In this document: positions 11,583-38,710 of the stretch, in pieces | Layout of the letters: each line of letters begins with the position of its first letter | Numbering within the stretch: position 1 is the first letter of the stretch | NCBI GenBank assembly: GCA_018816485.1 | Contig: JAHIVL010000061.1 | Location: 1 to 38,844, forward strand | Length of the DNA: 38,844 nucleotides | Direction: 5' to 3' | Origin: Patescibacteria group bacterium | Lineage (GTDB): Bacteria > Patescibacteriota > Microgenomatia > UBA1400 > PJMF01 | The notes under the pieces: model-generated | Databases searched by the model: none | Told to the model about the DNA's origin: nothing | The model's input: the letters and a program-made list of their open reading frames with translations, nothing else | Made by a program: the position numbers and the translations under genes

Positions 11583-11655
11583 GAGTCGATAGCTCAGTTG
11601 GTAGAGCGGTAAGCTTATACCTTACTGGTCGGGGGTTCGAGTCCCTCTCGACTCA
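11583..11655 (+). tRNA. tRNA-Ile, anticodon UAU
   Basis: Hand-folded 73-nt cloverleaf. The acceptor is GAGTCGA/TCGACTC, the D arm GCTC-AGTTGGTA-GAGC, and the anticodon arm GTAAG-CTTATAC-CTTAC (positions 34-36 = TAT). The T arm is GGGGG-TTCGAGT-CCCTC and the discriminator is A. No CCA is encoded. Confidence 0.85.
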
Positions 11656-11658
11656 CAT
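11640..11658 (+). repeat. direct repeat copy 1 (tRNA-Ile 3' end, agtccctctcgactcacat)
   Basis: An identical 19-mer recurs at 11777-11795. Confidence 0.9.
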
Positions 11659-22916: not shown

Positions 22917-25590
22917 CATCTAAGAGGTCGATCTAATATTTAATTCTGAATTTTAAAACCGAATATTCGCGTTCTTTAAATAAAAAAAATAAATGTTTTA
23001 AAAGCGAACGCTTTCGAGCTTGTCTCGATGAGAGCTTTTAAAACAATTATTTTTGATTAGAAAATCAGAATAAAATTGGTTATTAAATATTAGTTCTTTG
23101 GTTTTACCTCACCAGGTCTTACTGAGAACTAACATTTAGCAACTAATTATTGCTGAAAAATGGATTTGTTGACTAAGTTAACATTTTCGACAAGGTAGTT
23201 AATACGGCAGGACTCTCAAGTTGTAAAAACCGTATATAAACCTAAATCCTTGAGATCTGGAATGAAAACAACAAAATTGTTTGTGATTGCCGACATGGCG
23301 ACTAATAACAAGTTTTCAGAAAAGAGTTGATCTTTAACAAGTGAAGAAAACTGTCATGTATAGGTCAAAATGATGATTTAATCATCAGTGGCCATGCATC
23401 TTTTTAAAATTTCAATAAAAAATTGTACTAAACTGTGCGGCAACGCACTAAATTGTACAAACATTTCGTCTTGAAATTACAAAAAAAAACAAATGCTACA
23501 AGTCGAGACTACGCAAGTAGTTTCGCATGCTAAAGTCTATTTACACAAGTGCAAACTCGTGTTTATAGCAAGCTTATAGAAATATAATAGCGATATATAA
23601 ATGAAAATTTATGTGAATTAATGCAGATAGTGGATGCCTAGGCTTATCTGGCCGATGAAGGACGCTAACCCCGCGAAAGTGGTTGGGTAACTGGGAAAAA
23701 GTTATGATCCAGCCGTGTCCGAATTGAGAAATCACGCTACGTGAGAGCGTAGTGGCCCTAATTTTTTAAATTAGGTGGGTAACCTCCCGAACTGAAATAT
23801 CTAAGTAGGGAGAGGAAAAGAAAACGTAAGAGATTCCCCGAGTAAGCGACGAGCGAAAAGGGACTAGTCCAAACCCGGAATTTATTCCGGGGGTTGTAGG
23901 ACCTCAACATTTGACTTTAAAAGATAGAAGAACACTTTGGAATAAGTGATCAAAGAGGGTGATAATCCCGTAAGCAAAATCTAATAAAGCGATAGAGGAT
24001 TCCTGAGTAGGTTGGGAGACGGCAAACTCCCTTCTGAATCTGGGGTGACCACACTCCAAGACTAAATACCAGATAAGACCGATAGTGAACGAGTACCGTG
24101 AGGGAAAGGTGAAAAGAAGGGTTGAAGACCCCGTGAAATAGAACCTGAAACCATCTGCTAACAATCAGACAAAGCACATTTATTGTGTGATGTCGTGCCT
24201 ATTGAAGAATGAGCCGGCGAGTATTTGACAACTGCTTCAGGTTAAGACATTTCGTGTCGAAGCCGTAGTGAAAGCGAGCGTGAATAGCGCGAATCTGTAG
24301 TTGTTGAATGACCCGAAACCGGGTGAGCTTACCATGACCAGGATGAAGCCCTGATAATATCGGGGTGGAGGTCCGCACCGGTGTATGCTGCAAGATGCTC
24401 GGATGAGTTGTGGTAAGAGGTAATATGCCAATCGAACCCGGAGATAGCTGGTTCTCCCTGAAATATATTTAAGTATAGGGTTACGTGAAGTTGCGGGGGG
24501 GTAGAGCACTGATCTGGTGTCTTGGGCGAAAGCCTAAGCGCTTAGTCAAACTCCGAATACCCCGTAATGTTTCGTAGCACTCAGCACCTGGGAGCTAAGT
24601 TCCAGGAGCAAAAGGAAAACAAACCAGACCTACAGCTAAGGTCTCAAATTACATATTTAGTGGCGAAAGAAGTGTTATTCCTAACACACCTAGGAGGTCG
24701 GCTCAGAAGCAGCCATCCTTTAAAGAAAGCGTAACAGCTCACTAGCCGAGGAATAATGCGCTGAAAATCCAACGAGGCTCAAATATGTAACCGAAGCTTA
24801 GGGTTCTAGTGTCAGATTTATTTGATATTGGAGCGGTAAGGGAGCGTTCTGTGTGCTTTGAAGCCAGCCCGTGAGGAGCTGGTGGAGCGATCAGAAGTGA
24901 GAATGCCGGCATGAGTAGCGAAATTGGGGTGAGAATCCCCGACTCCGAATGACCAAGGTTTCCGCACCCACGTTCGTCGTGTGCGGGTTAGGCGACCCTA
25001 AGGTGAGCCCTCGTTAATGAGGGGTAGCCGATGGATTACTGGTTAATATTCCAGTCCTTGGTTAGGATCATTTGACTTGGGGAGGGACGGTGATGGATAA
25101 CATGTGAGCAGCGGTGAATGTTGCTTCAAAGCACTAAAGCAGTCTGGATAGGAAAATCCGTTCAGGCGTTTATCTGAGGTGTGATAGGGCTCTGATTCCT
25201 TTTGGAAGACGAGTTACATGCGATTTCATTATCCTGGAAAAGCTTCGCAAGGAGATTCTAATCAAATCGTACCGATAACCGACACAGGTAGTCAGGTCGA
25301 GTAGACTAAGGAGAGCGAGAGAAAATAGTTTAAGGAACTCGGCAAAACAGCTGGGCGTAATTTCGAGAGATGCCCTCCTCTTTATAGCAATGTAAAGAGG
25401 CGCAGTGAATGTCATGAGGTTGACTGTTTACCAAAAACACAGGTCTGTGCAAACTCGTAAGAGGAAGTATACGGGCTGAAGCCTGCCCAGTGCCGGAAGG
25501 TTAATTGAGGGGGTTTTGTCTAATTTATTAGATAAGGCCTCTGATCGAAGCCCCGGTGAACGGCAGCAGTAACTATAACTGTTCTATGGT

Positions 25591-26301
25591 AGGAAAGCTG
25601 CCTTAGTAAAACTCAACTATATGCTGGAAACCCTGAGAATCTTGATCTACTCATTAAAATATGGTATATATTTACCATAAATGAGTGAAAATGATCCAAG
25701 TGCAGACAATCAGCAGGGAAGACTTGAATTCGCTAGTTGGATAATTGGTTTTGTTGATGGAGAAGGATGTTTTTCAGTCAGTATTTTTCGTAATAGAACG
25801 AGCAAATTTGGTTGGCAGGTAATGCCAGAATTTGTGATAACTCAATCTGAAAGAGACCTAGATGTTCTTAAAGACATCAAAGCTTTTTTCGGTTGTGGAA
25901 ATATCTTCGTAAATCGAAGATATGATAATCACAAACGTAATTTATATCGCTTCTGTGTACGCAAACGTTCTGATTTGACAAACGTAATCATTCCATTTTT
26001 CAATCAATATCCATTACTGACCAAGAAACATTTAGATTTTATTACTTTCAAAAAAGTAGTAAATATGATGAATAAAAAGCAACATTTTCAAACAAAAGGT
26101 TTGAATAAAATTGCTAAATTGGTTGGTAAAAATCTAGAACGAAATCAAGAACCCTCAGAGACTATACGTTGAGCTCAATTATTTAATTGAGAAGATATAG
26201 TCCGATCTCATAGGCGACTATGAGGATCTTTAAATACAAGCGTCGAAGATCATAAAAACAAAGCGTACAATTACTAAATATTTATTTAGTATTTGTTTAT
26301 G
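25591..26301 (+). mobile_element. group I intron 1 in 23S (about E. coli position 1931) carrying a LAGLIDADG ORF
   Basis: The exon junction restores ..CTATGGT|AGCGAAGTTCCTTGTC. The intron follows a U and ends in G. A P7-like gatatagtcc core lies downstream of the ORF. Confidence 0.8.
25681..26172 (+). CDS. LAGLIDADG homing endonuclease (single-motif type)
   Basis: 163 aa. The motif WIIGFVDGEGCFSV is a LAGLIDADG motif. The ORF lies entirely inside intron 1. Confidence 0.88.
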   Translation: MSENDPSADNQQGRLEFASWIIGFVDGEGCFSVSIFRNRTSKFGWQVMPEFVITQSERDLDVLKDIKAFFGCGNIFVNRRYDNHKRNLYRFCVRKRSDLTNVIIPFFNQYPLLTKKHLDFITFKKVVNMMNKKQHFQTKGLNKIAKLVGKNLERNQEPSETIR

Positions 26302-26864
26302 AGCGAAGTTCCTTGTCACTTAATTGGTGACCCGCACGAAAGGTTTAACAAGCCTCATACTGTCTTGAACTATTACTCGGCGAAATTGAAATGGCTGTGA
26401 AGATGCGGCCTACTGACAACAGGACAAAAAGACCCCGTAGAGCTTTACTACAACTTGGCACTGACGGTGAATATAGGATTGTTTAGAATAGGCGGGAGGA
26501 AACTTCATTTATGACGTTTCCGACCAGTGAAATACCGCCCGTTTTGTATTTATCATCTAACTTAATCATGCTGCAAACGCATGAAAGAACACTGTCTGGT
26601 GGGTAGTTTAACTGGGGAGGTTGCTTGCTAAAGAGTAACGCAAGCGCGCAATGGTATTCTTCGCCTGGATAGAAATCAGGCTGGACGTGCAATAGCATAA
26701 GAATGCTTTACTGTGAGACATACAAGTCGAGCAGTTGCGAAAGCAGGTTATAGTGATCCTCGTGTGTTTTGTGGAAGACACCGGGCTTATCGGATAAAAG
26801 TTACCTCGGGGATAACAGAGTCATCGCGCCTAAGCGTCCCTAGCGTCGGCGCGGTTTGCTACCT

Positions 26865-27256
26865 TTATTAACATTGGGGTCCCTTAACAGTAATGTTAAG
26901 GTGCTGTTCTTGAGTAGAAAGACAACTCAATTTCTACTATCAAGATAAAAATGGGCTCATAACGGTGAACCCTTCGTTTTATCGGATAGATAAAACATGG
27001 TAATACCGTGGGAAGTCCAACAAAAGATCAAAATTCTATACCTCAAAGGGTATAATTAAGAGCATTTGCTTTTAATTTAGTAGTGGATAACATTACAAGC
27101 TTTTGTTGTGACCCCGTATCGACTTGAGAGTTGGGGCAATTATGCAAACTCTCAGATGGAATGAATAATCATTTCATAACACGCCCACGTCCTTTATGTA
27201 GAAACAAAGGATGGTGGTATAGTCAGACTCTTGGCGAAAGCCTTGAGATAAATTCG
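26865..27256 (+). mobile_element. group I intron 2 in 23S (about E. coli position 2500), ORF-less
   Basis: The junction restores TTTGCTACCT|CGATGTCGGCTCATC. The intron follows a U and ends in G. A ggtggtatagtc core is present. Confidence 0.75.
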
Positions 27257-27303
<47 letters not shown>

Positions 27304-27349
27304 AGTCTGTTCGCCTATTAAAGCGGTACGCGAGCTGGGTTCAGACCGT

Positions 27350-27741
27350 CAACTAACGGCGGCTTTTTCGAGTAATCGAAATCGAATAAATCGACTCATA
27401 TCGGTGAAACCCTAACAAACACTCAACCTGTCGTGTGTTAGGATAATACCGAGGGAAGTTGTATTCCTGTACATATTATGAAAAAAAATCTTTTTTAAAT
27501 TGAATTATTCAAAAAAAAGAAAAATATGTACTAAGGTGGTTCGTAATCACCTGATAGAAAAAGGAGTATTAACCCCGTAGAGACTTGTTTGTGTAACGAG
27601 CAAACAGAATTGTTTTTAATAAAAATAATTAACACGTCGATCCCCTACACTTTGCAATAAAAACAAAGAATGATGTAGGGTGGTGGTATAGTCCATCCTC
27701 TTAGTAATAAGAGATTTTATATACTTTTATGTATATATATG
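27350..27741 (+). mobile_element. group I intron 3 in 23S (about E. coli position 2593, the I-CreI-type site), ORF-less
   Basis: The junction restores GGGTTCAGACCGT|CGTGAGACAGGTCGG. The intron follows a U and ends in G. A ggtggtatagtcc core is present. Confidence 0.75.
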
Positions 27742-27884
27742 CGTGAGACAGGTCGGCCTCTATCCGCTGTCAGCGTTAGATAGTTGAGAGAATTTGCCCA
27801 TAGTACGAGAGGACCTGGGTGAGGGAATCCCTAGTGTTCCAGTTGTTGCTGTCAAGCGCACTGCTGGGTAGCTACATTCCTTAT

Positions 27885-27917
<33 letters not shown>

Positions 27918-28258
27918 AATCTCAAGATTAACTATCTCCATTAGACCCGTGGGAGAACACCACGTTGATAGGTAGTCGGTGTAAGCCTGGTGACAGGCTA
28001 AGCCTAACTATACTAAGTGTTGATCGAACATAATTTTCAAATTTTAATTTTTGAACGTTAGCGAGTTGTGCAATTTATTGTGCGCCCGCCAAACAAATTT
28101 TCAAACTTTAAAAGCATGGACACTGTGTTACATCAACTAAATTTTAATCTAATTAACGTTTTTCATATCTTTTTGACCCATGGCAGATTTTCTTCACTTG
28201 TTAGAGTCCAACTCTAATTAACAATTTAATATTACTTAACCGCGTAAAGAACGTTTAA

Positions 28259-28376
28259 TTCTGGTCTCTAGAGCGAGGTGGAACCAACTCTTCCCTTCCC
28301 GAACAGAGTCTTGAAACTCCTCAGCGCTGACAATAGTGCATGGGCAACTGTGTGTGAAGATAGGTCGAGGCCAGAA
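28259..28376 (+). rRNA. rrf: 5S ribosomal RNA
   Basis: 118 nt. Helix I pairs ttctggtctc with gaggccagaa. The internal CCCGAACAGAGTCTTGAAAC..CAGCGCTGACAATAGTG matches the bacterial 5S consensus (CCGAAC.CAGAAGTGAAAC..GCGCCGATGGTAGTG). A T7 run follows. Confidence 0.88.
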
Positions 28377-28391
28377 TTAAGCGTTTTTTTG
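28310..28391 (+). repeat. 82-bp direct repeat, copy 1 (3' 67 nt of 5S rRNA plus a 15-nt T-rich trailer)
   Basis: Matches 36141-36222 with two substitutions by hand alignment. Confidence 0.9.
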
Positions 28392-28440
28392 TGGGCAAAA
28401 TTAGTTTTCTATTAACCCTGAATTGAAGCCAATTAAAGTT

Positions 28441-28469
28441 TTCGAATTTCTTTATCCTGGTGCTATAAT
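28441..28469 (+). promoter_or_regulatory. candidate promoter with extended -10 (TTCGAA-17-[TGC]TATAAT) for the 28561-31804 operon
   Basis: TGCTATAAT lies at 28461-28469, and a weak -35 hexamer lies 17 nt upstream of the -10 hexamer. Confidence 0.4.
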
Positions 28470-28560
28470 AAACATGTATCCTTAAGATGTAATTATATCC
28501 GTGAGGGCATATCCGAGAGAACCTGTGGTTCATGAAGGTACAAGTAAATAGTAAAATAAT

Positions 28561-29580
28561 ATGAAAATTTTATTAAATATTCCTCAAAGTAAATGGGATA
28601 ATAGCAACATTAGTAGAGCACTTGCAAGTTTTCCAGGACAAATTTTAACCTATGTTAAGAAAACTGATGCAGCAGCAATTTTAAGACTTGAGCAGTGGTT
28701 ATCAATAATTTTATGGAGATGGTACTTTTTAGTCAATGATTCTTTAACTACTTCACCATATCTTTATTTAATATGGAGGCATGATTTAGAAAATTGGCCT
28801 AAAGAAAGTCAGTTCTTAGTTATTGCAAAAACTAATTTTATAGACCAGAAAATTAATATAACTCTTGACGTTGATGCAATTGATTTTAATCAACAACCAT
28901 TATTGGTTGACCTATTGAATGTAAAATCTAAAATAAATTCAAAAACAAATTTATTTTTCCCCAATGATTCTGTATACACGAAGTTAATTGAGAACCTAAA
29001 ACTTGAATTTACCAAAGATGTTAAAGATATCAAAGGTTTCACAGAGAATAAAAATCCAAATAAACTAGATCAATCTCAAATTCAATTAACTAAAAAAATA
29101 GTTGTCTACTTACTTGATGAATGGCATAAGACTGATGAAATTATAAATAAAAGTTGGACTAAAGTAGAATGGCAGGGTCTTTGGAGTTGGGTATTTTCAT
29201 TTATCCAAAAAGAAGATGAACTCACTTCAGAAATGTTTTCCGATAAAATTATTAAACATACACGTAAAACAATGCCCACTTTTGGTTTAACTGGCCAAGA
29301 AATGGAGCAAATGGAACAGAATAATGCTTCTTACTCAAGGTCCCAAGCAAGTAGTCAATTTATGTTTTGGTTAAATTGTACGAGATTTTTTACACTTCCT
29401 TTGTCATGGTATTTACACCTAGTAGCGCCAGTTTTTCTTGAACAATTGAATTTTGATCAAGATATCAAAGATACCTTAACAAATTTTTTTGAAGATCCAA
29501 TTCTTCTTTTTAATCCATTTTCTGCGATATCACTTACTAGTTTTGGGAGTCAAGTATTAACAGAGGATCTTTGGAGGTAG
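28561..29580 (+). CDS. hypothetical protein (no recognisable domain)
   Basis: 339-aa ORF, Trp-rich. Its stop is 4 nt before the start of the next gene. Confidence 0.7.
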   Translation: MKILLNIPQSKWDNSNISRALASFPGQILTYVKKTDAAAILRLEQWLSIILWRWYFLVNDSLTTSPYLYLIWRHDLENWPKESQFLVIAKTNFIDQKINITLDVDAIDFNQQPLLVDLLNVKSKINSKTNLFFPNDSVYTKLIENLKLEFTKDVKDIKGFTENKNPNKLDQSQIQLTKKIVVYLLDEWHKTDEIINKSWTKVEWQGLWSWVFSFIQKEDELTSEMFSDKIIKHTRKTMPTFGLTGQEMEQMEQNNASYSRSQASSQFMFWLNCTRFFTLPLSWYLHLVAPVFLEQLNFDQDIKDTLTNFFEDPILLFNPFSAISLTSFGSQVLTEDLWR

Positions 29581-29584
29581 ATTT

Positions 29585-31804
29585 ATGGGTTTAAGTTTTA
29601 ATAGTAGTCTCAAGCCGGAAGAACATAAAAAAATTGGTCGTAATGAACTATGTTCATGTGGTAGTGGTAAGAAATTTAAAAAATGTTGTTTACAAAAGCA
29701 GAACGAACAACAATATTCTGCAGGTAATAAACAAGGGAAAGTTGCTAGAGTTGTAGATTGGGTAACCCAGCAGCCGTGGAATGAATGGTACTTACAAGCT
29801 TATTTCAAGCGTTATTATCCAAATTTGACTATGGAAGAATCAGAGATGAGTGCGATTATGGATTTAGCTATTTTTGAAGGACTAGTTGGCAGTAAGACTC
29901 CACTGGAAATGTTTGTGTCTCAAGCTACTTTAACTACTTCAGAAAGAAATTATTATCAAAGCTGGACTGATAATCATATCTTTTCTTTTTTTAAAGTTCA
30001 AGAAGTTGATTTAGGACAAAGTGTTGTTCTTAAAGATTTGCTATCTAAATTGGGTAAAACATATTTTGTACTAGAAAAGCAGGGCACTTATACTATGTCT
30101 GTTGGTACTGTTGTAGCCGCACGACTTGTTTCTCATTATGATGATTGGATGATGAGTGGAGGAGCGCTTTTTGCCCTGCCATCAGAATTTACACATCTGT
30201 TACAAAAAAATAGAGATAAACTTCCTAGTGAAGGAATTACTCAACAAGAGTTCATGGAAAGCTCACTACCTCAATTTGACCACATAGATAAAGATTCTTT
30301 GGTTGAAAATGGCTACACTCTTGATGAGGTGGAGAAAGCATTGAGTTTACTAGGCGAAGAACTTGATGTTGTTGAGGTATTACAACGATGTAAACCTGTT
30401 GCAATGGGAACTAGCGTTGTTAACGATAAACAATTGAATAGCAGTGAATTGTATAAAAATGATCTGCAAGAAATAATTTTTAAATGCGATAGTCAGCACC
30501 AAATTAATAGACTATTTAGCTTACTAAAAAGGTTGGGTGACTTAACTGTCCCGGATAGTTTTGATAGCAATGTTAGTAAACAGATTCAAGTAGGGAAAGC
30601 TGAGGTCGAAAAATTTGAATTTAAAACAAACTTTGCGGATTCTCATGAAGGTTTATCTTCCAAGCAAATTAAAATTTATAATAAGGCCGCAAGCAACTTG
30701 CTCAATAAAAAACCACTATTAGCTCTTAAGCAGTTTGCTCAATTGACATCTGTTGTTGAGTCAATAGATGAGTCATTTCGTTGGTATGGCAATGTAGGAA
30801 CGTGTTTGTCAATGTTGGGACAATTAAAATTAGCAGAGTCATTTTTTAAAAAGGCTGTAAGGATTAATTCTAACTACGATGTTGCAAAAAACAACTTAAA
30901 AAATTTTGATGATGACAAGATTAAAGACCAGCTTATTAATCAAGGATCAATATATTTTTGGTCTATGTTTCATAGAACAAAGTGGGCCCTAAATTTAGCC
31001 GATAGCGTGAGTTCTAAGTTACTTCAAAAATCAAATCCAAGCTTATTACAAGATATGATAGTTTTTTTGAGTTATTTTGAAGATAATAAAGTAAGTTTAA
31101 CACCAAAAAGAAAAGATATTCCCTTAAAGACCGTGAAGGTTATTAATAAACTGTTTGTTGTTGCAGATTCAGAAACAATGTCTTACAAATTTAGCAAGGA
31201 GTCTGAGTTTTCTCAACTAAGGTTGTTACGTATGGTAGCTTTATTTACTGGTTGGGTTAAAATTACTACCACTGGGCGCAAAACATCCAGACCTATTTTA
31301 AGTATTACTAATAAGGGTAAAGAGTGGCTTAAGAAACCAGCCTTGGACCAGTTTAGTATGTTGCTCACAGCCTGGTGGGGGGATACTGCATGGGAAGAGG
31401 TATATGATTTTCATAATTTAGCTACTGGCTTTATTGAGCAATCTCTTGGTTTTTATCAAGATTCTTTGTTTGTGTGTTTGAGAAGTCTTTACTGGGCTAA
31501 TGGATGGCTCTCTTTAGAGAAAGTAATGGGTAGTTTTTCTTCAACGGCGGATGAGTTTGAAATTTTCTTATCTAGCTCTATGTTTGAAAGGGATGTCTTA
31601 ATATTTTTAACTAAGGCGGGATTGGTGAAGCCTAAGTACCAGGATTTAGTATTTGTTAGGGGAGAAATATCGTTTGATGATGATCCAGACGACAAAAGAG
31701 AGCAAGCTTATAAAATGACAGCTTTAGGCAGGCAAGTATTTGTAGTGTTGGAAGAAAGATTGAGAGGTATGGTGCCAAAAGAAATTTTGCAGATGGAGTT
31801 GTAG
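29585..31804 (+). CDS. SEC-C motif / TPR-containing protein of unknown function
   Basis: 739 aa. The N-terminal CSCGSGKKFKKCC is a SEC-C zinc-binding motif. A TPR-like segment (YGNVGTCLSMLGQLKLAESFFKKAVRINSNY) is present. The C-terminal region looks winged-helix-like, which is inference only. Confidence 0.75.
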   Translation: MGLSFNSSLKPEEHKKIGRNELCSCGSGKKFKKCCLQKQNEQQYSAGNKQGKVARVVDWVTQQPWNEWYLQAYFKRYYPNLTMEESEMSAIMDLAIFEGLVGSKTPLEMFVSQATLTTSERNYYQSWTDNHIFSFFKVQEVDLGQSVVLKDLLSKLGKTYFVLEKQGTYTMSVGTVVAARLVSHYDDWMMSGGALFALPSEFTHLLQKNRDKLPSEGITQQEFMESSLPQFDHIDKDSLVENGYTLDEVEKALSLLGEELDVVEVLQRCKPVAMGTSVVNDKQLNSSELYKNDLQEIIFKCDSQHQINRLFSLLKRLGDLTVPDSFDSNVSKQIQVGKAEVEKFEFKTNFADSHEGLSSKQIKIYNKAASNLLNKKPLLALKQFAQLTSVVESIDESFRWYGNVGTCLSMLGQLKLAESFFKKAVRINSNYDVAKNNLKNFDDDKIKDQLINQGSIYFWSMFHRTKWALNLADSVSSKLLQKSNPSLLQDMIVFLSYFEDNKVSLTPKRKDIPLKTVKVINKLFVVADSETMSYKFSKESEFSQLRLLRMVALFTGWVKITTTGRKTSRPILSITNKGKEWLKKPALDQFSMLLTAWWGDTAWEEVYDFHNLATGFIEQSLGFYQDSLFVCLRSLYWANGWLSLEKVMGSFSSTADEFEIFLSSSMFERDVLIFLTKAGLVKPKYQDLVFVRGEISFDDDPDDKREQAYKMTALGRQVFVVLEERLRGMVPKEILQMEL

Positions 31805-31820
31805 GTAAAAAACTTGATAA

Positions 31821-31893
31821 TGTTTCTGTAGATACTAAAAATTATAGTAATTATAGAAATGATTGAGAAAATAAAAAAAGTACCATTTTTATC
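31821..31893 (+). repeat. 73-bp direct repeat, copy 1 (duplicate of the abiEi upstream region plus its first 12 codons)
   Basis: Identical to 34619-34691. The duplicated ATG at 31859 opens only a 21-codon ORF (MIEKIKKVPFLSQSSFSISPN). Confidence 0.9.
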
Positions 31894-31954
31894 ACAAAGC
31901 TCCTTTTCCATTTCGCCAAATTAGGCGAAAATTGGTGAATTGAGGTTAACTGTA

Positions 31955-32005
31955 ATAAACTGACGCCAGTTTGGTAGAGAAATCATGTCAAACTGGTGTC
32001 AGTTT
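31955..32005. other. 17-bp-arm inverted repeat (taaactgacgccagttt / aaactggtgtcagttta) with a 17-nt loop
   Basis: Read directly from the sequence. The single mismatch would be a G-U pair in RNA. Confidence 0.5.
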
Positions 32006-32058
32006 AATTTGGTAAAACTTATTCGGTACTTGATTTTGGACGTGTGACCAATAGTGTA

Positions 32059-32110
32059 AAAATGTGCATAGTAATAGTTTAAAAATGTGCACTTTTCCTT
32101 GATCCTAGTA
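32059..32110 (+). repeat. dispersed 52-bp repeat, copy 2
   Basis: Matches 12106-12157 with one mismatch, in the same orientation. It abuts the truncated 5' end of the AlbA_2 pseudogene. Confidence 0.9.
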
Positions 32111-33038
32111 TTTACCCTATAGTTTTAGAAAAACAACAAGGAAGTAAAAAATATATTGAGATTGTGGTAGAAAAAAGTTTTATCTCTCCACATTTTGCAG
32201 ACCACATTGCTTATCAAAGAGTTGGAAGGACTTCACAAAAGCTATCTGCTCAAGAAATAGAAAAATATATTTCTCAAAGAAATACTGTTAGTTTTGACAA
32301 TACAGCACTTTTGCCAGTAAAAATTGAGAATATATCTATTGCCAAGGTTAAAGAGTTTTTAGATTCAATTAATAAAAATTATCCTGTGAATTCTTACCTT
32401 CTTTCTAGAAATTGCTTAAAACAAGAGTCAGCAGTATCAAGCTCTTTACCTACTTTTAACTCCTACAGTTGCAGGTATTTTACTATTTGGAGAGGATCCA
32501 CAGTCATTTCTCACTCAGTCACATATTACGTTAGTTGATTACACCAAGTCGGCACAAAAAGAAGTTAAAGTAATAAAATCTATTGCTGGAACAGTGTTGG
32601 AGCAGTTATCACAGCTGGTTGAGAATATTTACAGGGCTTTACTCTCCTTTGGATATTTTACCCAAAAATGAGATAAAAAGAAAAAAAGTCTATGTGATTC
32701 CACCAGCTATTTTAAGAGAGATACTGGTTAATGCACTTACTCATAGGGATTACTCTGATTATGGAAGAAAAACAATTATCCAGTTGTATAAAGATAGATT
32801 TACCATCTCTAATCCAGCTAGATTTGATAAAAATATAACAGAAAATGACTTAATTAACTATCAATACTCACAAAATCCTATTTTAACTAGAGTCTTTTTT
32901 GAAGCAGGATTGATAGAGGAAATTGGTAAAGGATATAGCTCATCTGAGTTGGCGAAGTCTCTAGATGTTTCAAAGGATACTATCTTGAGTGATTTGGAAA
33001 CATTAAAATCATTAATTAATATTGTTGACGAAGGGTAA
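32083..33038 (+). pseudogene. decayed AlbA_2 / HATPase_c_4 (Schlafen/RecG-C-terminal-like) putative DNA-binding regulator
   Basis: The N-terminal part of the AlbA_2 domain is missing. Three reading frames are needed to recover the conserved blocks: HIAYQRVGRTSQKLSAQE (frame 1), LTPTVAGILLFGEDPQSF (second frame) and AILREILVNALTHRDYS (ORF 32583-33038). This implies at least two frameshifts plus a 5' truncation. Confidence 0.7.
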
Positions 33039-33139
33039 GGTAGAACAACTAGATATCGTTGGATTCAGTAAACTATAAATCAAACCATAAACAATGGTCA
33101 TTGTTATAATGTCTATTGTTGTGTTAAAATAACAACTAT

Positions 33140-34600
33140 ATGAAAAAATTTTATAATCGAAAAGATGAAATCCAGGCTTTACTAGATATACACAAAGAAT
33201 CAAAAGACCAAGCTAGATTTACTTATATTATCGGTCAAAGAAGAATTGGCAAGACGAAGTTAATAGAACACGTATTTCTAAATTCAAAATTTCAAAAAAA
33301 GAACAAAGTTGTGTACTTTTTTGTTGAACGTAAATCTGTAGATGCTCTTTTACTAGAGTTTACAGATTTGTTAAAAAGTATTTTTGATCTTACCCCAGAG
33401 TTTAAAGATTTATCTTCATTTTTTAAGTATCTTTTTGAGCAATCTAGACACCAAAATTTAACAATAATTTTTGACGAGTTTCAAAATTTTAGTTATGTTG
33501 ATTCAAGTGTCTTTTCTACTTTGCAAAAACTATGGGACAAACACAAATATGAATCTTACCTCAATTTAATTACTATCGGGTCAATATATTCTTCAATGGA
33601 AAAAATATTTGTATCAAAACATGAACCTTTATTTGGTAGGCCTACAGATAAATTATCTCTTAAAACATTTAGTATTTCCACTTTACAAGAGATATTAAAA
33701 GATAATAAAGTTAATAGTTTTGACCAGTTACTAAGTAATTTCACATTATTTAATGGTATTCCTAAATATTGGGATATTCTTGAATATAAGAAATTGTTGA
33801 ATAAAAAACCAGACGAAATTTTACTTGATTTATTTTTATCTTCACGGTCTTTACTAAAGAATGAAGGTAAAGAGTTACTTATGGAAGAATTTGGTCCAGA
33901 ATATCATACTTATTTTTCTATTATTGAGGCTATAGCAACACTTAGTAAAGTTTCAACTAATAAAATAGCTTCTAGGGTAGGTATTGAGTCTCATCATGTT
34001 AGTACTTACTTAGCATCTTTAAATAAAAAGTTTAGTTTAATTACTAAGAAAAAATCACTAATTAATTTCTCAAATAAAAAAGGGAGATATATACTTAACA
34101 ATAGATTTTTGCAAACTTGGTTTAGGTACATATTTGCTAATAAAAGTTTAGTGGAGTCTGGGAACAAACAAGAGATTATAAACAAATTTAATAAAGATTT
34201 TCAGAGTTATAAAGGACTGGCTTTTGAAGATCTTACTATTCAGATACTAAAATCAACTTATCAAAAGTTTTCATATGAAACATGGGGAGGGTATTGGGAC
34301 AAGCAGAGAGAAATAGATATTGTAGGTATAAATAAATCTGAAAAAACTGCGATGATTGGAGAGTGTAAATTATCTGTTAATATGGTTAATGATGAAATAG
34401 TTCAAAAAATGGAAGAAAATGCTAGATACTTGAGTTCTGTTTTGGTGGGTTACAAGGTTAAAAAATATATCTTTGTTGCTAGTAAAGGTAGTAAGAGTAA
34501 AGCTAAGCAGTGGGATGATGATTATGGTATTAAGTTGGTTGATAAAGATGAGCTGTTAGGTTTAATAACTGAATCAACTCGGAATGAGTGTTGCGAGTAG
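33140..34600 (+). CDS. Arch_ATPase/DUF234-family AAA+ ATPase with a PD-(D/E)xK-like C-terminal motif
   Basis: 486 aa. FYNRKDEIQALLD...GQRRIGKTKLI supplies Walker A and IIFDEFQNF supplies Walker B. The C-terminal EIDIVG-x12-IGECKLS resembles a restriction-endonuclease-fold motif. Confidence 0.8.
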   Translation: MKKFYNRKDEIQALLDIHKESKDQARFTYIIGQRRIGKTKLIEHVFLNSKFQKKNKVVYFFVERKSVDALLLEFTDLLKSIFDLTPEFKDLSSFFKYLFEQSRHQNLTIIFDEFQNFSYVDSSVFSTLQKLWDKHKYESYLNLITIGSIYSSMEKIFVSKHEPLFGRPTDKLSLKTFSISTLQEILKDNKVNSFDQLLSNFTLFNGIPKYWDILEYKKLLNKKPDEILLDLFLSSRSLLKNEGKELLMEEFGPEYHTYFSIIEAIATLSKVSTNKIASRVGIESHHVSTYLASLNKKFSLITKKKSLINFSNKKGRYILNNRFLQTWFRYIFANKSLVESGNKQEIINKFNKDFQSYKGLAFEDLTIQILKSTYQKFSYETWGGYWDKQREIDIVGINKSEKTAMIGECKLSVNMVNDEIVQKMEENARYLSSVLVGYKVKKYIFVASKGSKSKAKQWDDDYGIKLVDKDELLGLITESTRNECCE

Positions 34601-34618
34601 TTGTTTAATGTGTTATAT

Positions 34619-34691
34619 TGTTTCTGTAGATACTAAAAATTATAGTAATTATAGAAATGATTGAGAAAATAAAAAAAGTACCATTTTTATC
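34619..34691 (+). repeat. 73-bp direct repeat, copy 2 (native abiEi 5' region)
   Basis: Identical to 31821-31893. Confidence 0.9.
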
Positions 34692-35277
34692 TAAAACAGC
34701 GCTTGCTGTGGCTTTAGATAAAAATAAAAATACTTTGCGCAACACTATAGATTATTGGGTTAAAAACAAAACTCTTACGAGGCTTAAGAGAGGTTTTTAT
34801 GTGTTTAGTAGTTTTTTAGACAGAAAAAATAACTCACTATATTATTCTAAATTTTTAGCGACTAAATTGATAGAGCCAAGTTATTTGAGTAAGGAATTTA
34901 TTCTACAAGAATATCAAATATTGACAGATGTAGTGTATGGTTATTCAGTAGTTACTTTAAAAAAGACAAATACTATTGCGAATAAATTTGGAGTTTTTAA
35001 TTATAGTTCAATAAAAAAAGACTTATTTGTTGGTTTTTCTCAAGTATCATATGGAAGTATGAGTTGGTATGTGGCAAGCAAGGCCAAAGCACTGTTTGAC
35101 TATATTTATTTTAATCAAAACAAATTTACCACTTTTTCTGAAGGTGAGTTACTTGGTTTAAGGTTAAGATTAGAAGTGATGTCTGCTCAGGATTGGAAAG
35201 AGTATAAAAAATATCTTAAAAAAGCACCAAAAAAAATGAGTCAGATTTATAAAATTATGGAAACATCACTATGTTAA
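34657..35277 (+). CDS. abiEi: AbiEi-family type IV toxin-antitoxin antitoxin / transcriptional regulator
   Basis: 206 aa with an N-terminal wHTH ending in LTRLKRGFYVF (the AbiEi_4 pattern ..rl.rGvY). It overlaps the downstream AbiEii gene by 7 nt. Confidence 0.75.
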   Translation: MIEKIKKVPFLSKTALAVALDKNKNTLRNTIDYWVKNKTLTRLKRGFYVFSSFLDRKNNSLYYSKFLATKLIEPSYLSKEFILQEYQILTDVVYGYSVVTLKKTNTIANKFGVFNYSSIKKDLFVGFSQVSYGSMSWYVASKAKALFDYIYFNQNKFTTFSEGELLGLRLRLEVMSAQDWKEYKKYLKKAPKKMSQIYKIMETSLC

Positions 35278-36128
35278 TAGATAATTTAAAAGAAATAGTG
35301 CAGATTAGTAGAAGTAAGAATATGTCTGTAGAGTATATAAAAATTGAACTTAAAGAAGTATTAATTGACTATACTTTAGATTTTATCTATAACTCACCAA
35401 AGTGGAACAAACTTATTTTTGGAGGTGGAACTGCTTTGAAAATGATTGGCAAGACAGCGAGATTGTCCGAAGATTTAGATATGGATTACTTAACAGCAGA
35501 ATTTGATTCAAAAGGTTTTGTTAAGAGTTTGCTAGCTTTTTTTAAAAATCTTGGAGTAGGTGAAGTCACAACAACACTGCAACATAAGGATCAAATTATT
35601 ACAATTAAGTTTCCAATCTTAAAAGAACTGGGTTTGATTAAAGATATAAAAAATGAAAGTAATTTACTTTATTTAAAAATAGAACTAGAGAAGAACAAAT
35701 ACTCTGAATTTACAACGGCAGTGACTCCTTTTATGAAAAACAACTTATTTTCTGTGGTTAAACACTATGATTTGGAGACACTTTTTGCCAATAAAATTGG
35801 CGCCATTTTGGGTAGAAAAAACAAGATCTATCATGATAAATATGATTTCAAAGGTCGTGATTTTTATGATCTAATTTGGTTTTTACAGCATAGCATTAAA
35901 CCAAATTTAAAAAGATTAAAGCAAATAATTAAAATTGAGCAAAAAAAGACAGTAGAAAATTACGATGATGTCTGGAAATTGCTAACAAATAGAGTTAAAG
36001 AAGTAAATACTGCTGGAATTTATGCAGATATGAAAAATTTAGTTAAAGAACCCGCAGGCATCAAACAATTGGCCAATAATTATCTAGAAATATATTCTTC
36101 TTTGGTAAAAAAACTGAGTTATAGCTAA
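35271..36128 (+). CDS. abiEii: AbiEii/AbiGii-family nucleotidyltransferase toxin (DUF1814)
   Basis: 285 aa. FGGGTALKMIGKTARLSEDLDMDY matches the AbiEii NTase motifs (GGTAL...R.S.DLD). Confidence 0.85.
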   Translation: MLIDNLKEIVQISRSKNMSVEYIKIELKEVLIDYTLDFIYNSPKWNKLIFGGGTALKMIGKTARLSEDLDMDYLTAEFDSKGFVKSLLAFFKNLGVGEVTTTLQHKDQIITIKFPILKELGLIKDIKNESNLLYLKIELEKNKYSEFTTAVTPFMKNNLFSVVKHYDLETLFANKIGAILGRKNKIYHDKYDFKGRDFYDLIWFLQHSIKPNLKRLKQIIKIEQKKTVENYDDVWKLLTNRVKEVNTAGIYADMKNLVKEPAGIKQLANNYLEIYSSLVKKLSYS

Positions 36129-36140
36129 GATTTACAAGAG

Positions 36141-36222
36141 CTTGAAACTTCTCAGCGCTGACAATAGTGTATGGGCAACTGTGTGTGAAGATAGGTCGAG
36201 GCCAGAATTAAGCGTTTTTTTG
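36141..36222 (+). repeat. 82-bp direct repeat, copy 2 (orphan 5S rRNA 3' fragment plus trailer)
   Basis: Matches 28310-28391 with two substitutions. No 5S 5' half precedes it. Confidence 0.9.
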
Positions 36223-37786: not shown

Positions 37787-38710
37787 ATGATGAAAACAAA
37801 TATACTTAAAAAAAATGAAAAACAACTAGATAAAGAAATTAGAAAAAGAAAACTAGAGGATCCTGATTTATTAAAGTCTCTTTCTAATATTTTAAAGAAA
37901 AAAAGAGGACATGTATTTAAAATGCCTGCTCCTAATACGCCTGTAATTGTTTTTATGTCTGGCGGTATTGATACCATAACAATAATAGCTATTTTGATGG
38001 AAGAGTTTGGTTTGCAAGTTTACCCAGTGTATTTTGATTTAGGTTTTCCTCAATCAAAATATGATAAAAAAAGTGTTTTTTTCTTTACAGATTACTATTT
38101 AAAAAAATATCCTAAATTATTTCACTCACCTATGGAAATATCATTGACGTTTCCTGCAAAACAAATGGCCAAGCATATACTTCCTAATTCAGGAAATATA
38201 TTTATAGATAAATCAATAAATCATCGCAGAGGAGTTCCTTTTTCTCCAGCAATTTTTGCATATAACGCTGTGCATTATGCTATCTCTCTAAGAGAAGGTA
38301 AAAGTATTGAAGTTAATACTATTTTTGGAGGAATTTTGCCATCTAATATTGACTGGTATTCATATGAGTCACTAACGACTCATAGGTCGATTAACCTTGA
38401 TATTTGTGTGTCTTTGAACGATTACTCTTGGCAGTACACTTCTTTACCGATTGAAAAAGAACTGGGATTTAATTTGCAAAAACAAGATCTTATTTCCTGG
38501 GGACATAAGTATGGATTGCCATTAGAAAAAACAAGGACTTGTAATGTAAAAAGAGAACATCAGTGTGGTGTGTGTGATATTTGTATAGTTAGAAAAAAGG
38601 CATTTAAGTTGGCAAAAGTAAAAGACAATACATTCTATTTATTTAAAAAGCCTTTACTTGAAAGAGTAAGGTATAGAGTAAAAAGGCATCTTCCATGGCT
38701 CTTAAAATAG
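37787..38710 (+). CDS. QueC-like PP-loop ATP pyrophosphatase family protein (divergent, extended)
   Basis: 307 aa. VFMSGGIDT is an SGGxD[ST] PP-loop, and the C-terminal C-x8-CGVCDIC-x2-R resembles the QueC zinc-binding cluster. It has a Lys-rich ~45-aa N-terminal extension. Confidence 0.6.
   Translation: MMKTNILKKNEKQLDKEIRKRKLEDPDLLKSLSNILKKKRGHVFKMPAPNTPVIVFMSGGIDTITIIAILMEEFGLQVYPVYFDLGFPQSKYDKKSVFFFTDYYLKKYPKLFHSPMEISLTFPAKQMAKHILPNSGNIFIDKSINHRRGVPFSPAIFAYNAVHYAISLREGKSIEVNTIFGGILPSNIDWYSYESLTTHRSINLDICVSLNDYSWQYTSLPIEKELGFNLQKQDLISWGHKYGLPLEKTRTCNVKREHQCGVCDICIVRKKAFKLAKVKDNTFYLFKKPLLERVRYRVKRHLPWLLK

Follow-up and report, generated by a model that had tools for sequence, protein, structure and literature searches.

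A conserved SEC-C/DUF7986 gene pair on an island in a 5S rRNA gene of a Patescibacteria contig: a tentative candidate for a conflict module

What is a rare pair of genes, recognised in hardly any other genome, doing at the head of an island that otherwise carries defence genes? The question is raised by a 38,844-nucleotide (nt) stretch of a Patescibacteria contig (JAHIVL010000061.1, assembly GCA_018816485.1), the whole of which is called the window in the following. An earlier note on positions 28441-31804 of the window, here referred to as the original prediction, had drawn attention to two adjacent open reading frames (ORFs), which we call ORF A and ORF B, and had proposed them as a candidate novel anti-phage or anti-mobile-element system or, alternatively, as the maintenance or mobility module of the island itself. 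Patescibacteria, also known as bacteria of the Candidate Phyla Radiation (CPR), are episymbionts with tiny genomes, and both their immune and their mobile-element biology are poorly charted; the pair is a well-defined candidate for a conflict system peculiar to these organisms. We find that A and B are a genuine, conserved and co-evolving pair, and this pairing has not been described before. What the pair does can be answered more tentatively, and the readings are weighed below.

Our ORF calls agree with the original ones, yielding proteins of 339 and 739 amino acids (aa) that are encoded on the plus strand with 4 nt between them. In 12 out of 12 loci, representing about ten lineages (the window, L001, L010, L002, L019, L011, which equals L015-17, L012, L013, which equals L018, L014, L020, L036/37 and L038), a gene for a SEC-C/DUF7986 protein is located directly 3' of the A homologue and on the same strand. 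The two genes overlap by up to 29 nt or lie up to 29 nt apart, the gap being wider only in the decayed locus L019. Moreover, sequence identity between A homologues tracks that between the N-terminal 225 residues of the corresponding B proteins (r = 0.59, Mantel p ~ 0.004). The co-occurrence of the homologues, which the original prediction had proposed to look for, is hence borne out both by strict pairing and by co-variation.

Within the window, A and B most likely constitute a co-transcribed pair, as predicted from the sequence. The extended -10 promoter that had been placed upstream of A corresponds to a motif located 92 nt 5' of the ATG of A. This motif is not statistically distinctive, however, since TGNTATAAT occurs four times in the window compared to 3.2 occurrences expected by chance, and sigma-70-like sites are not enriched in the region (27 observed versus 20.8 ± 3.9 expected). 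The promoter is thus plausible by virtue of its position. No intrinsic terminator was predicted in the region.

Where the pair decays, A mostly stays intact beside a truncated or frameshifted B. The B gene is frameshifted into 381 + 148 aa in L014 (10318-11798), shortened to 227 aa in L012 (10957-11640) and reduced to 84 aa beside an intact A in L036/L037 (1306-1560), with the L036 contig being present in 10 samples; in L019, B is cut to 237 aa and A is split as well. This pattern suggests that B would be the costly component of the pair and A its neutraliser, and it argues against the reverse assignment.

The domain composition of B offers the most direct access to a possible function. The SEC-C zinc motif, which the original prediction had recognised at the N-terminus, is matched by Pfam with a score of 32.3 bits, compared to a gathering cut-off of 20.4, and PDB sequence matches of B are restricted to YchJ-C and SecA metal-binding-domain peptides, obtained via this motif. 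The adjacent conserved core, a DUF7986 domain (PF25948), had been missed. Its assignment stems from the precomputed annotation of this exact protein; the local Pfam scan did not report the model, and phmmer connects the B protein of the window to other PF25948 proteins (E-values of 4e-21 to 1e-4). A full-text literature search for DUF7986 returned no paper, and hmmsearch of the DUF7986 profile against PDB sequences returned nothing. A YchJ-type NTF2-like domain, which likewise consists of helices followed by a beta sheet, was considered as a relative of DUF7986 and rejected at the sequence-profile level (hhalign probability 0.2%).

The AlphaFold model of B is confident only in the core comprising residues ~50-225 and in the TPR region. 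For the TPR-like stretch seen in the original prediction, each of the Pfam matches, which span residues ~364-431, is below threshold, and the confident model of the region resembles TPR structures according to Foldseek, a search that used the whole model of B and in which TPR matches dominate the list. The C-terminal third, in turn, had been described as repeated winged-helix modules. Because the predicted local accuracy (pLDDT) is low in this part and the PadR/MarR matches found by Foldseek have E-values of ~0.1, we regard winged-helix modules as a possibility. Comparison of the orthologues shows which parts of B are kept. Those that look intact measure 349 aa (L020), 531 aa (L002) or 739-794 aa, and SEC-C and DUF7986 are the only parts found in all orthologues, the TPR and C-terminal parts being variable and often lost. 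The C-terminal region of B is common only to the long orthologues of L011 and L013. With its predicted succession of SEC-C, DUF7986, TPR and C-terminal region, B is a new architecture within an uncharacterised family.

For A, the original prediction had recognised no domain, and our searches agree, as Pfam, NCBIfam, PHROG and PADLOC all lack a family match. PADLOC-DB v2.0.0 gave no consistent match to the A family; a match to TraS, weak and confined to one of the 29 family members, was dismissed as chance. The protein is acidic (pI 5.5), and a membrane protein is ruled out by the highest Kyte-Doolittle 19-residue mean of 1.26 and the lack of a transmembrane segment. Conserved positions are mainly aromatic or proline (WRWYFL, SPY, E.WP..G.F, QPL, PLS.Y, T.FG). 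Based on the 29-sequence alignment, AlphaFold2 yields a model with a pLDDT of 88.1 and a pTM of 0.88, for which Foldseek finds no match in the PDB (best E-value 0.53, TM <= 0.13) and none in BFVD (best E-value 0.27). The modelled fold of A thus appears to be devoid of detectable relatives in these two databases, and we do not claim it as a new fold.

The A family is rare. While a word-indexed search found just two relatives, an exhaustive HMMER profile search of 1.84 billion cluster representatives returned 50 matches at E <= 1e-3, about 30 of which are full-length proteins of ~320 aa. With a search pattern built from an 8-sequence subset of the 29-sequence alignment, an A homologue was found in 4 of 185,579 species genomes. 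Those source genomes that have a name belong to Roizmanbacteria in two cases and to Berkelbacteria in one, and the remaining source is a 2.7-kb contig in a Pseudomonadales bin, probably through mis-binning; as judged from these homologues, the A family appears to be restricted to CPR bacteria (Roizmanbacteria and Berkelbacteria). As a side observation, a stretch matching the last ~85 residues of A is also present in a few proteins measuring 530-556 aa (P0057, P0058, P0060 and P0062 at loci L021-L024; E-values of 1.6e-6 to 2e-4), two of which carry a C-terminal PRiA4_ORF3 domain. In an Altiarchaeales region with many Cas1, Cas4 and PIN genes, a PRiA4_ORF3 gene (L007, 4992-5525) also occurs two genes 5' of the best relative of B outside CPR bacteria. 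A and B both end on 'LT.FG'; a common C-terminal module was considered on this ground, and no claim is made for it (hhalign probability 6.5%).

The location of the pair can be defined precisely. The 7.8-kb block to which it belongs is an island with exact edges, inserted in the 3' end of a 5S rRNA gene (Table 1). It is framed by two 5S-derived 82-nt direct repeats of 98% identity, which are 7831 nt apart and were found by a direct-repeat search of the window, the left copy also being detected by blastn. The bracketed region (28392-36222) contains the A/B pair, a broken AlbA_2-like gene, a DUF234 ATPase gene and the AbiEi/AbiEii genes. Because the 5S rRNA gene is intact at the left edge and an orphan 3' fragment of it lies at the right edge, the arrangement is that of an element whose integration site is the 3' end of a stable-RNA gene. 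The right junction is present in two independent Logan assemblies (L031 and L032) that were found because they encode the same ABC-2 protein, and blastn of L032 against the window reveals another copy of the 5S rRNA 3' end in the spacer 5' of the ABC-2 gene. The pair therefore does head an island with defence cargo, as originally stated, and it directly adjoins the left repeat. A 5S rRNA gene is an unusual target for such an island, and among the ORFs of at least 60 aa between the repeats, all of which were accounted for in a Pfam scan, there is no integrase, transposase or recombinase. An integrase-free insertion in a 5S rRNA gene with clean 82-nt att-like repeats makes the island noteworthy in itself.

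Table 1. Features of the A/B locus and of the surrounding island in the window.
Feature	Position	Strand	Remarks
5S rRNA gene	28260-28376	+	Rfam RF00001, 65.1 bits, full length; intact; insertion target
Left 82-nt direct repeat (attL-like)	28310-28391		3' two-thirds of 5S plus T-run
Extended -10 motif TGCTATAAT	28461-28469	+	Candidate promoter of A/B
ORF A	28561-29580	+	339 aa; soluble alpha/beta protein, rare family
ORF B	29585-31804	+	739 aa; multidomain (SEC-C, DUF7986, TPR, C-terminal region)
SEC-C zinc motif of B	29639-29692	+	Residues 19-36; C23, C25, C34, C35; PF02810, E = 8.6e-8
DUF7986 conserved core of B	29732-30259	+	~Residues 50-225; five helices, then six-stranded beta region; pLDDT 80-94
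TPR region of B	30647-30934	+	~Residues 355-450; TPR_1 and TPR_12 matches; pLDDT 83-93
Variable C-terminal region of B	30947-31801	+	~Residues 455-739; possible winged-helix modules
Second 82-nt direct repeat, copy 1	31817-31898		Just after the stop of B; abiEi upstream region plus first 13 codons
AlbA_2-type gene, broken in two ORFs	32164-32538 + 32583-33038	+	Only HATPase_c_4 and HTH detectable
DUF234/ATPase_2 protein with Mrr_cat-like tail	33140-34600	+	PADLOC candidate PDC-S27, 3.8e-58
Second 82-nt direct repeat, copy 2	34615-34696		Overlaps abiEi start (ATG at 34657)
AbiEi	34657-35277	+	PADLOC 5e-36
AbiEii	35271-36128	+	PADLOC 8.6e-35; Pfam 1.2e-18
Right 82-nt direct repeat (attR-like)	36141-36222		Orphan 5S 3' part plus T-run, just 5' of the ABC-2 transporter gene

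The cargo is largely as originally described. Both the AbiEi/AbiEii abortive-infection module and the DUF234 ATPase with a nuclease-like tail, now a match to PDC-S27, are recovered by profile searches. The AlbA_2/Schlafen-like gene is retained in part: its HATPase_c_4 and HTH segments are found, but the gene is broken and the AlbA_2 part is undetectable by Pfam, so that it is probably a pseudogene. A second pair of 82-nt repeats (96% identity) lies inside the island, and translation of the copy behind B meets stop codons. Because the 5' part of abiEi is duplicated after B in this way, the intervening 2.8 kb, which carry the AlbA_2-like and DUF234 genes, seem to have been inserted later, and the older gene order was probably A-B-abiEi-abiEii.

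On the 3' side, the island is followed by an ABC-2 transporter gene and then a QueC-like gene, whereas the 23S rRNA gene lies directly 5' of the 5S rRNA gene. Some side observations concern these flanks and the remainder of the window. The 23S rRNA gene (23607-28037) spans 4431 nt compared to a model of 2925 nt, corresponding to ~1.5 kb of insertions, within which the ORF at 25681-26172 encodes a LAGLIDADG homing endonuclease (Pfam 9.2e-31). It is preceded in the window by a tRNA-Ala gene only and by no 16S gene, which is typical of CPR bacteria. A tRNA-Ile gene with the anticodon TAT (UAU), uncommon in bacteria, is found at 11583-11656. The QueC-like protein (37787-38710, 307 aa) has an N-terminal extension and directly follows the ABC-2/ABC_tran pair outside the island.

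In the other lineages the surroundings of the pair differ, and synteny is not conserved between them. In the window, the pair lies between the 5S rRNA gene and the defence cargo. The pair of L011 is preceded by TrmD and a GT2 glycosyltransferase and followed by SOD and an ABC transporter, and that of L014 stands between a MazEF-like pair and GAPDH and PGK. In L002/L019, no gene is annotated 5' of the pair and a MazE/AbrB-like gene with a PIN gene follows; in L020, an unknown partial ORF precedes and a RecQ-like helicase follows. The L012 pair lies behind tRNA-Lys and tRNA-Pro genes and the L013 pair behind a tRNA-Pro gene and an unknown 596-aa protein, both contigs ending on the 3' side, while the L036 contig begins just before the pair and continues with large unknown proteins and GT4. 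Toxin-antitoxin (TA) or defence neighbours are thus present in about three of the eight lineages with flanks (the window, L014 and L002/L019), which is a small sample.

We tentatively favour the reading of A/B as a conflict module akin to abortive-infection or TA systems, with B as sensor-effector and A as its partner, and regard it as possible, without putting it on a par with the findings above. An accessory module of conflict type, as opposed to a housekeeping one, is indicated since the pair is rare and patchy, its context varies, pseudogenes are frequent, the island carries defence cargo and TA modules are neighbours elsewhere. Roles can be assigned provisionally: B would be the costly sensor-effector and A the partner or restrainer, because B decays while A stays, because of the gene order and because relatives of B carry an antitoxin-type domain in cis. 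The working part of B would be the invariant SEC-C zinc knuckle together with the DUF7986 core, while the TPR and the winged-helix-like C-terminus would represent a dispensable sensing or regulatory add-on. A, as a soluble partner with an unmatched fold, would bind B and restrain or regulate it. Since SecA binds the ribosome and SecB through its SEC-C motif, the translation or secretion machinery would be a plausible target. We infer in this scheme a physical interaction of A and B, which of the two acts as effector, the target and the defence phenotype.

Several observations weigh against this proposal. In neither A nor B can a nuclease, NADase, protease, pore or other effector domain be recognised, nor a catalytic-looking set of conserved residues, and the PADLOC matches of the pair do not extend beyond the 20 residues of the SEC-C motif. 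In size, A and B far exceed the partners of classical TA systems, and viral contigs yielded no homologue of A. Furthermore, several lineages have housekeeping flanks with no defence neighbour (TrmD/GT2 and SOD, GAPDH, or a RecQ-like helicase), and the association with defence genes outside the window is only partial. Of the original suggestion of an anti-phage or anti-mobile-element system, strict pairing and the setting in an island with defence cargo thus speak for the claim, while the missing effector domain and the mixed neighbours elsewhere speak against it. None of the profile or structure searches places the pair in a known pathway.

The alternative that survives best, though we consider it rather unlikely, is a lineage-specific cellular factor, for example a chaperone-adaptor of the ribosome or of secretion, in which SEC-C would dock on the ribosome or SecB, the TPR region on a client, and A would be the client or a co-chaperone. 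SEC-C motifs are present in SecA, YchJ, YecA and some methionine aminopeptidases, and TPRs are typical of chaperone adaptors. Some of the flanks are related to translation or RNA (23S/5S rRNA, TrmD, tRNA genes), and most of the distant DUF7986 relatives are solitary genes in ordinary surroundings, with a YchJ_M-like gene beside one of them. Such a factor is, however, difficult to reconcile with the rare and patchy distribution of the family (~50 clusters among 1.84e9 representatives and the 4 species genomes given above), with the unconserved synteny and frequent pseudogenes, and with the position of the pair on an inserted island that carries defence cargo.

The second alternative had been named by the original prediction itself. 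Here, the pair would serve the integration, excision or maintenance of the island, as a system of non-canonical recombination or partition near stable-RNA genes. It gains slightly from the data on the island, since att-like repeats are present in the absence of any ORF for an integrase, transposase or recombinase and since the pair adjoins attL, the usual place of island integrases. B, moreover, has a zinc knuckle and possibly a winged-helix region, and a stable-RNA gene lies just 5' of the pair in three lineages, with tRNA-Pro genes on the same strand in L012 (8837-8912, a Berkelbacteria contig) and L013 (8090-8164, a Roizmanbacteria contig). These two contigs end soon after B, and their short 3' sequence contains no att-like repeat. 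Against it, signatures of tyrosine, serine and DDE recombinases are absent from both family alignments, and no flanking repeats of at least 25 nt were found around the pair in L002, L014, L015, L012 and L018. The L011 pair stands alone between GT2 and SOD, and that of L014 between the MazEF-like module and GAPDH. The apparently intact 349-aa orthologue of L020 is devoid of the putative DNA-binding C-terminus, and truncation of B, which is frequent, would leave the element stranded. We therefore consider a maintenance or mobility role unlikely; its boldest form, in which A/B would be a new site-specific machinery for integration and excision in CPR bacteria that does without a tyrosine, serine or DDE recombinase and moves small islands to stable-RNA 3' ends, such as that of 5S rRNA in the window and of tRNA-Pro in L012 and L013, with DNA recognised through the zinc knuckle and winged-helix parts of B and A providing chemistry or architecture, is highly unlikely.

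A classical TA pair with A as toxin and B as antitoxin or regulator is the least probable of the alternatives, and very improbable: the operon is tight, other TA modules adjoin the pair in three lineages, an antitoxin domain of DUF2384 type is present in relatives of B, and winged-helix modules are possible in B itself, but A lacks any toxin-like domain and is acidic, the B protein of the window has no Xre_MbcA_ParS_C motif, and A is intact beside a B of 84 aa (L036/L037) or 227 aa (L012), which would be lethal were A an unrestrained toxin.

How, then, does the conflict module that we favour compare with known systems? The closest proteins are distant relatives of B of ~480 aa, which bear the annotation 'SEC-C metal-binding domain-containing protein', for instance in Desulfobacca acetoxidans, and in which an N-terminal SEC-C motif is likewise followed by a DUF7986 core and usually by a C-terminal Xre_MbcA_ParS_C (DUF2384) antitoxin-type domain. 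In long orthologues of B from CPR bacteria, a degenerate 'W..TPQ.EL.GKTP' motif remains where the latter would be. The relatives differ from B in being standalone, no A-like gene having been found beside non-CPR relatives. The B protein of the window, in turn, adds the TPR region and a 285-aa C-terminal region and lacks a DUF2384-like motif: PF09722 gives no match at E <= 0.1, and the motif is missing in the alignment. The contexts of the distant relatives are mixed, two of five being rich in defence or mobile genes, namely Cas1/Cas4/PIN in one case and a DndE-like gene with AAA_15/AAA_21 ATPases in the other. On a proteobacterial-type contig (L026, 6449-6829), a gene for a small YchJ_M-like (NTF2-like) protein is found 6 nt after a SEC-C/DUF7986/DUF2384 gene, an adjacency which may mean that these two SEC-C-associated families are functionally connected.

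With the TA systems RES-Xre, ParST and MbcTA the pair has the two-gene operon in common, and relatives of B contain the toxin-binding domain of the antitoxin. In contrast to these systems, A/B has no RES/ART toxin domain, the B protein of the window has no antitoxin domain, and the proteins are 3-7 times larger. By the usual features of type II TA systems, the 4-nt gap represents the tight operon, whereas a toxin domain and a small labile antitoxin are absent (339 and 739 aa), no toxin family having been matched in Pfam, NCBIfam, PADLOC or PHROG. The likeness to the SecA metal-binding domain, YchJ and YecA consists of the CxCx8-9C[CH] zinc knuckle and ends at this 20-residue motif. Similarly, PDC-S12 and the E2 or E1-E2 accessory proteins of CBASS, as modelled in PADLOC, match the SEC-C motif of 20 out of 20 B-family members scanned, a match that covers ~25 residues at the C-terminal end of these models with nothing else aligning. 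The pair thus appears to lie outside every known defence family, its matches being limited to the SEC-C motif. The island as a whole resembles the integrative islands that target tRNA or tmRNA genes, in which long direct repeats of the 3' end of a stable-RNA gene likewise surround accessory or defence cargo; it differs from them in its target, a 5S rRNA gene, and in having no integrase inside.

A possible functional precedent, by analogy, for a defence protein headed by SEC-C is Rugutis, a single-gene Abi-like antiphage protein of 359 aa on Lactococcus plasmids, with the identifier pUCCL633_059 in PRJNA1086404. Its N-terminal SEC-C motif precedes a domain that is modelled with confidence and has no counterpart in the PDB, and the phage terminase large subunit acts as its trigger (PMC11381338, PMC13064643). 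It shares with B the N-terminal SEC-C motif, the location on mobile DNA and a size near that of the shortest intact B orthologue (349 aa, L020), a likeness by description. Unlike B, which is always paired with A, Rugutis acts as a single gene. A tblastn search of PLSDB with the N-terminal part of B gave no Lactococcus match; with this part and with a SEC-C peptide, PLSDB returned only unrelated SEC-C proteins of Enterococcus, Bacillus, Clostridium and Alkaliphilus, in which the motif is mostly C-terminal. If B proves to be related to Rugutis, SEC-C-headed proteins would join a broader, mechanistically unexplored class of defence proteins that may act on the ribosome. Compared to all these systems, a two-gene accessory module on an island is a familiar kind of thing, while the A family and the architecture of B are the new part.

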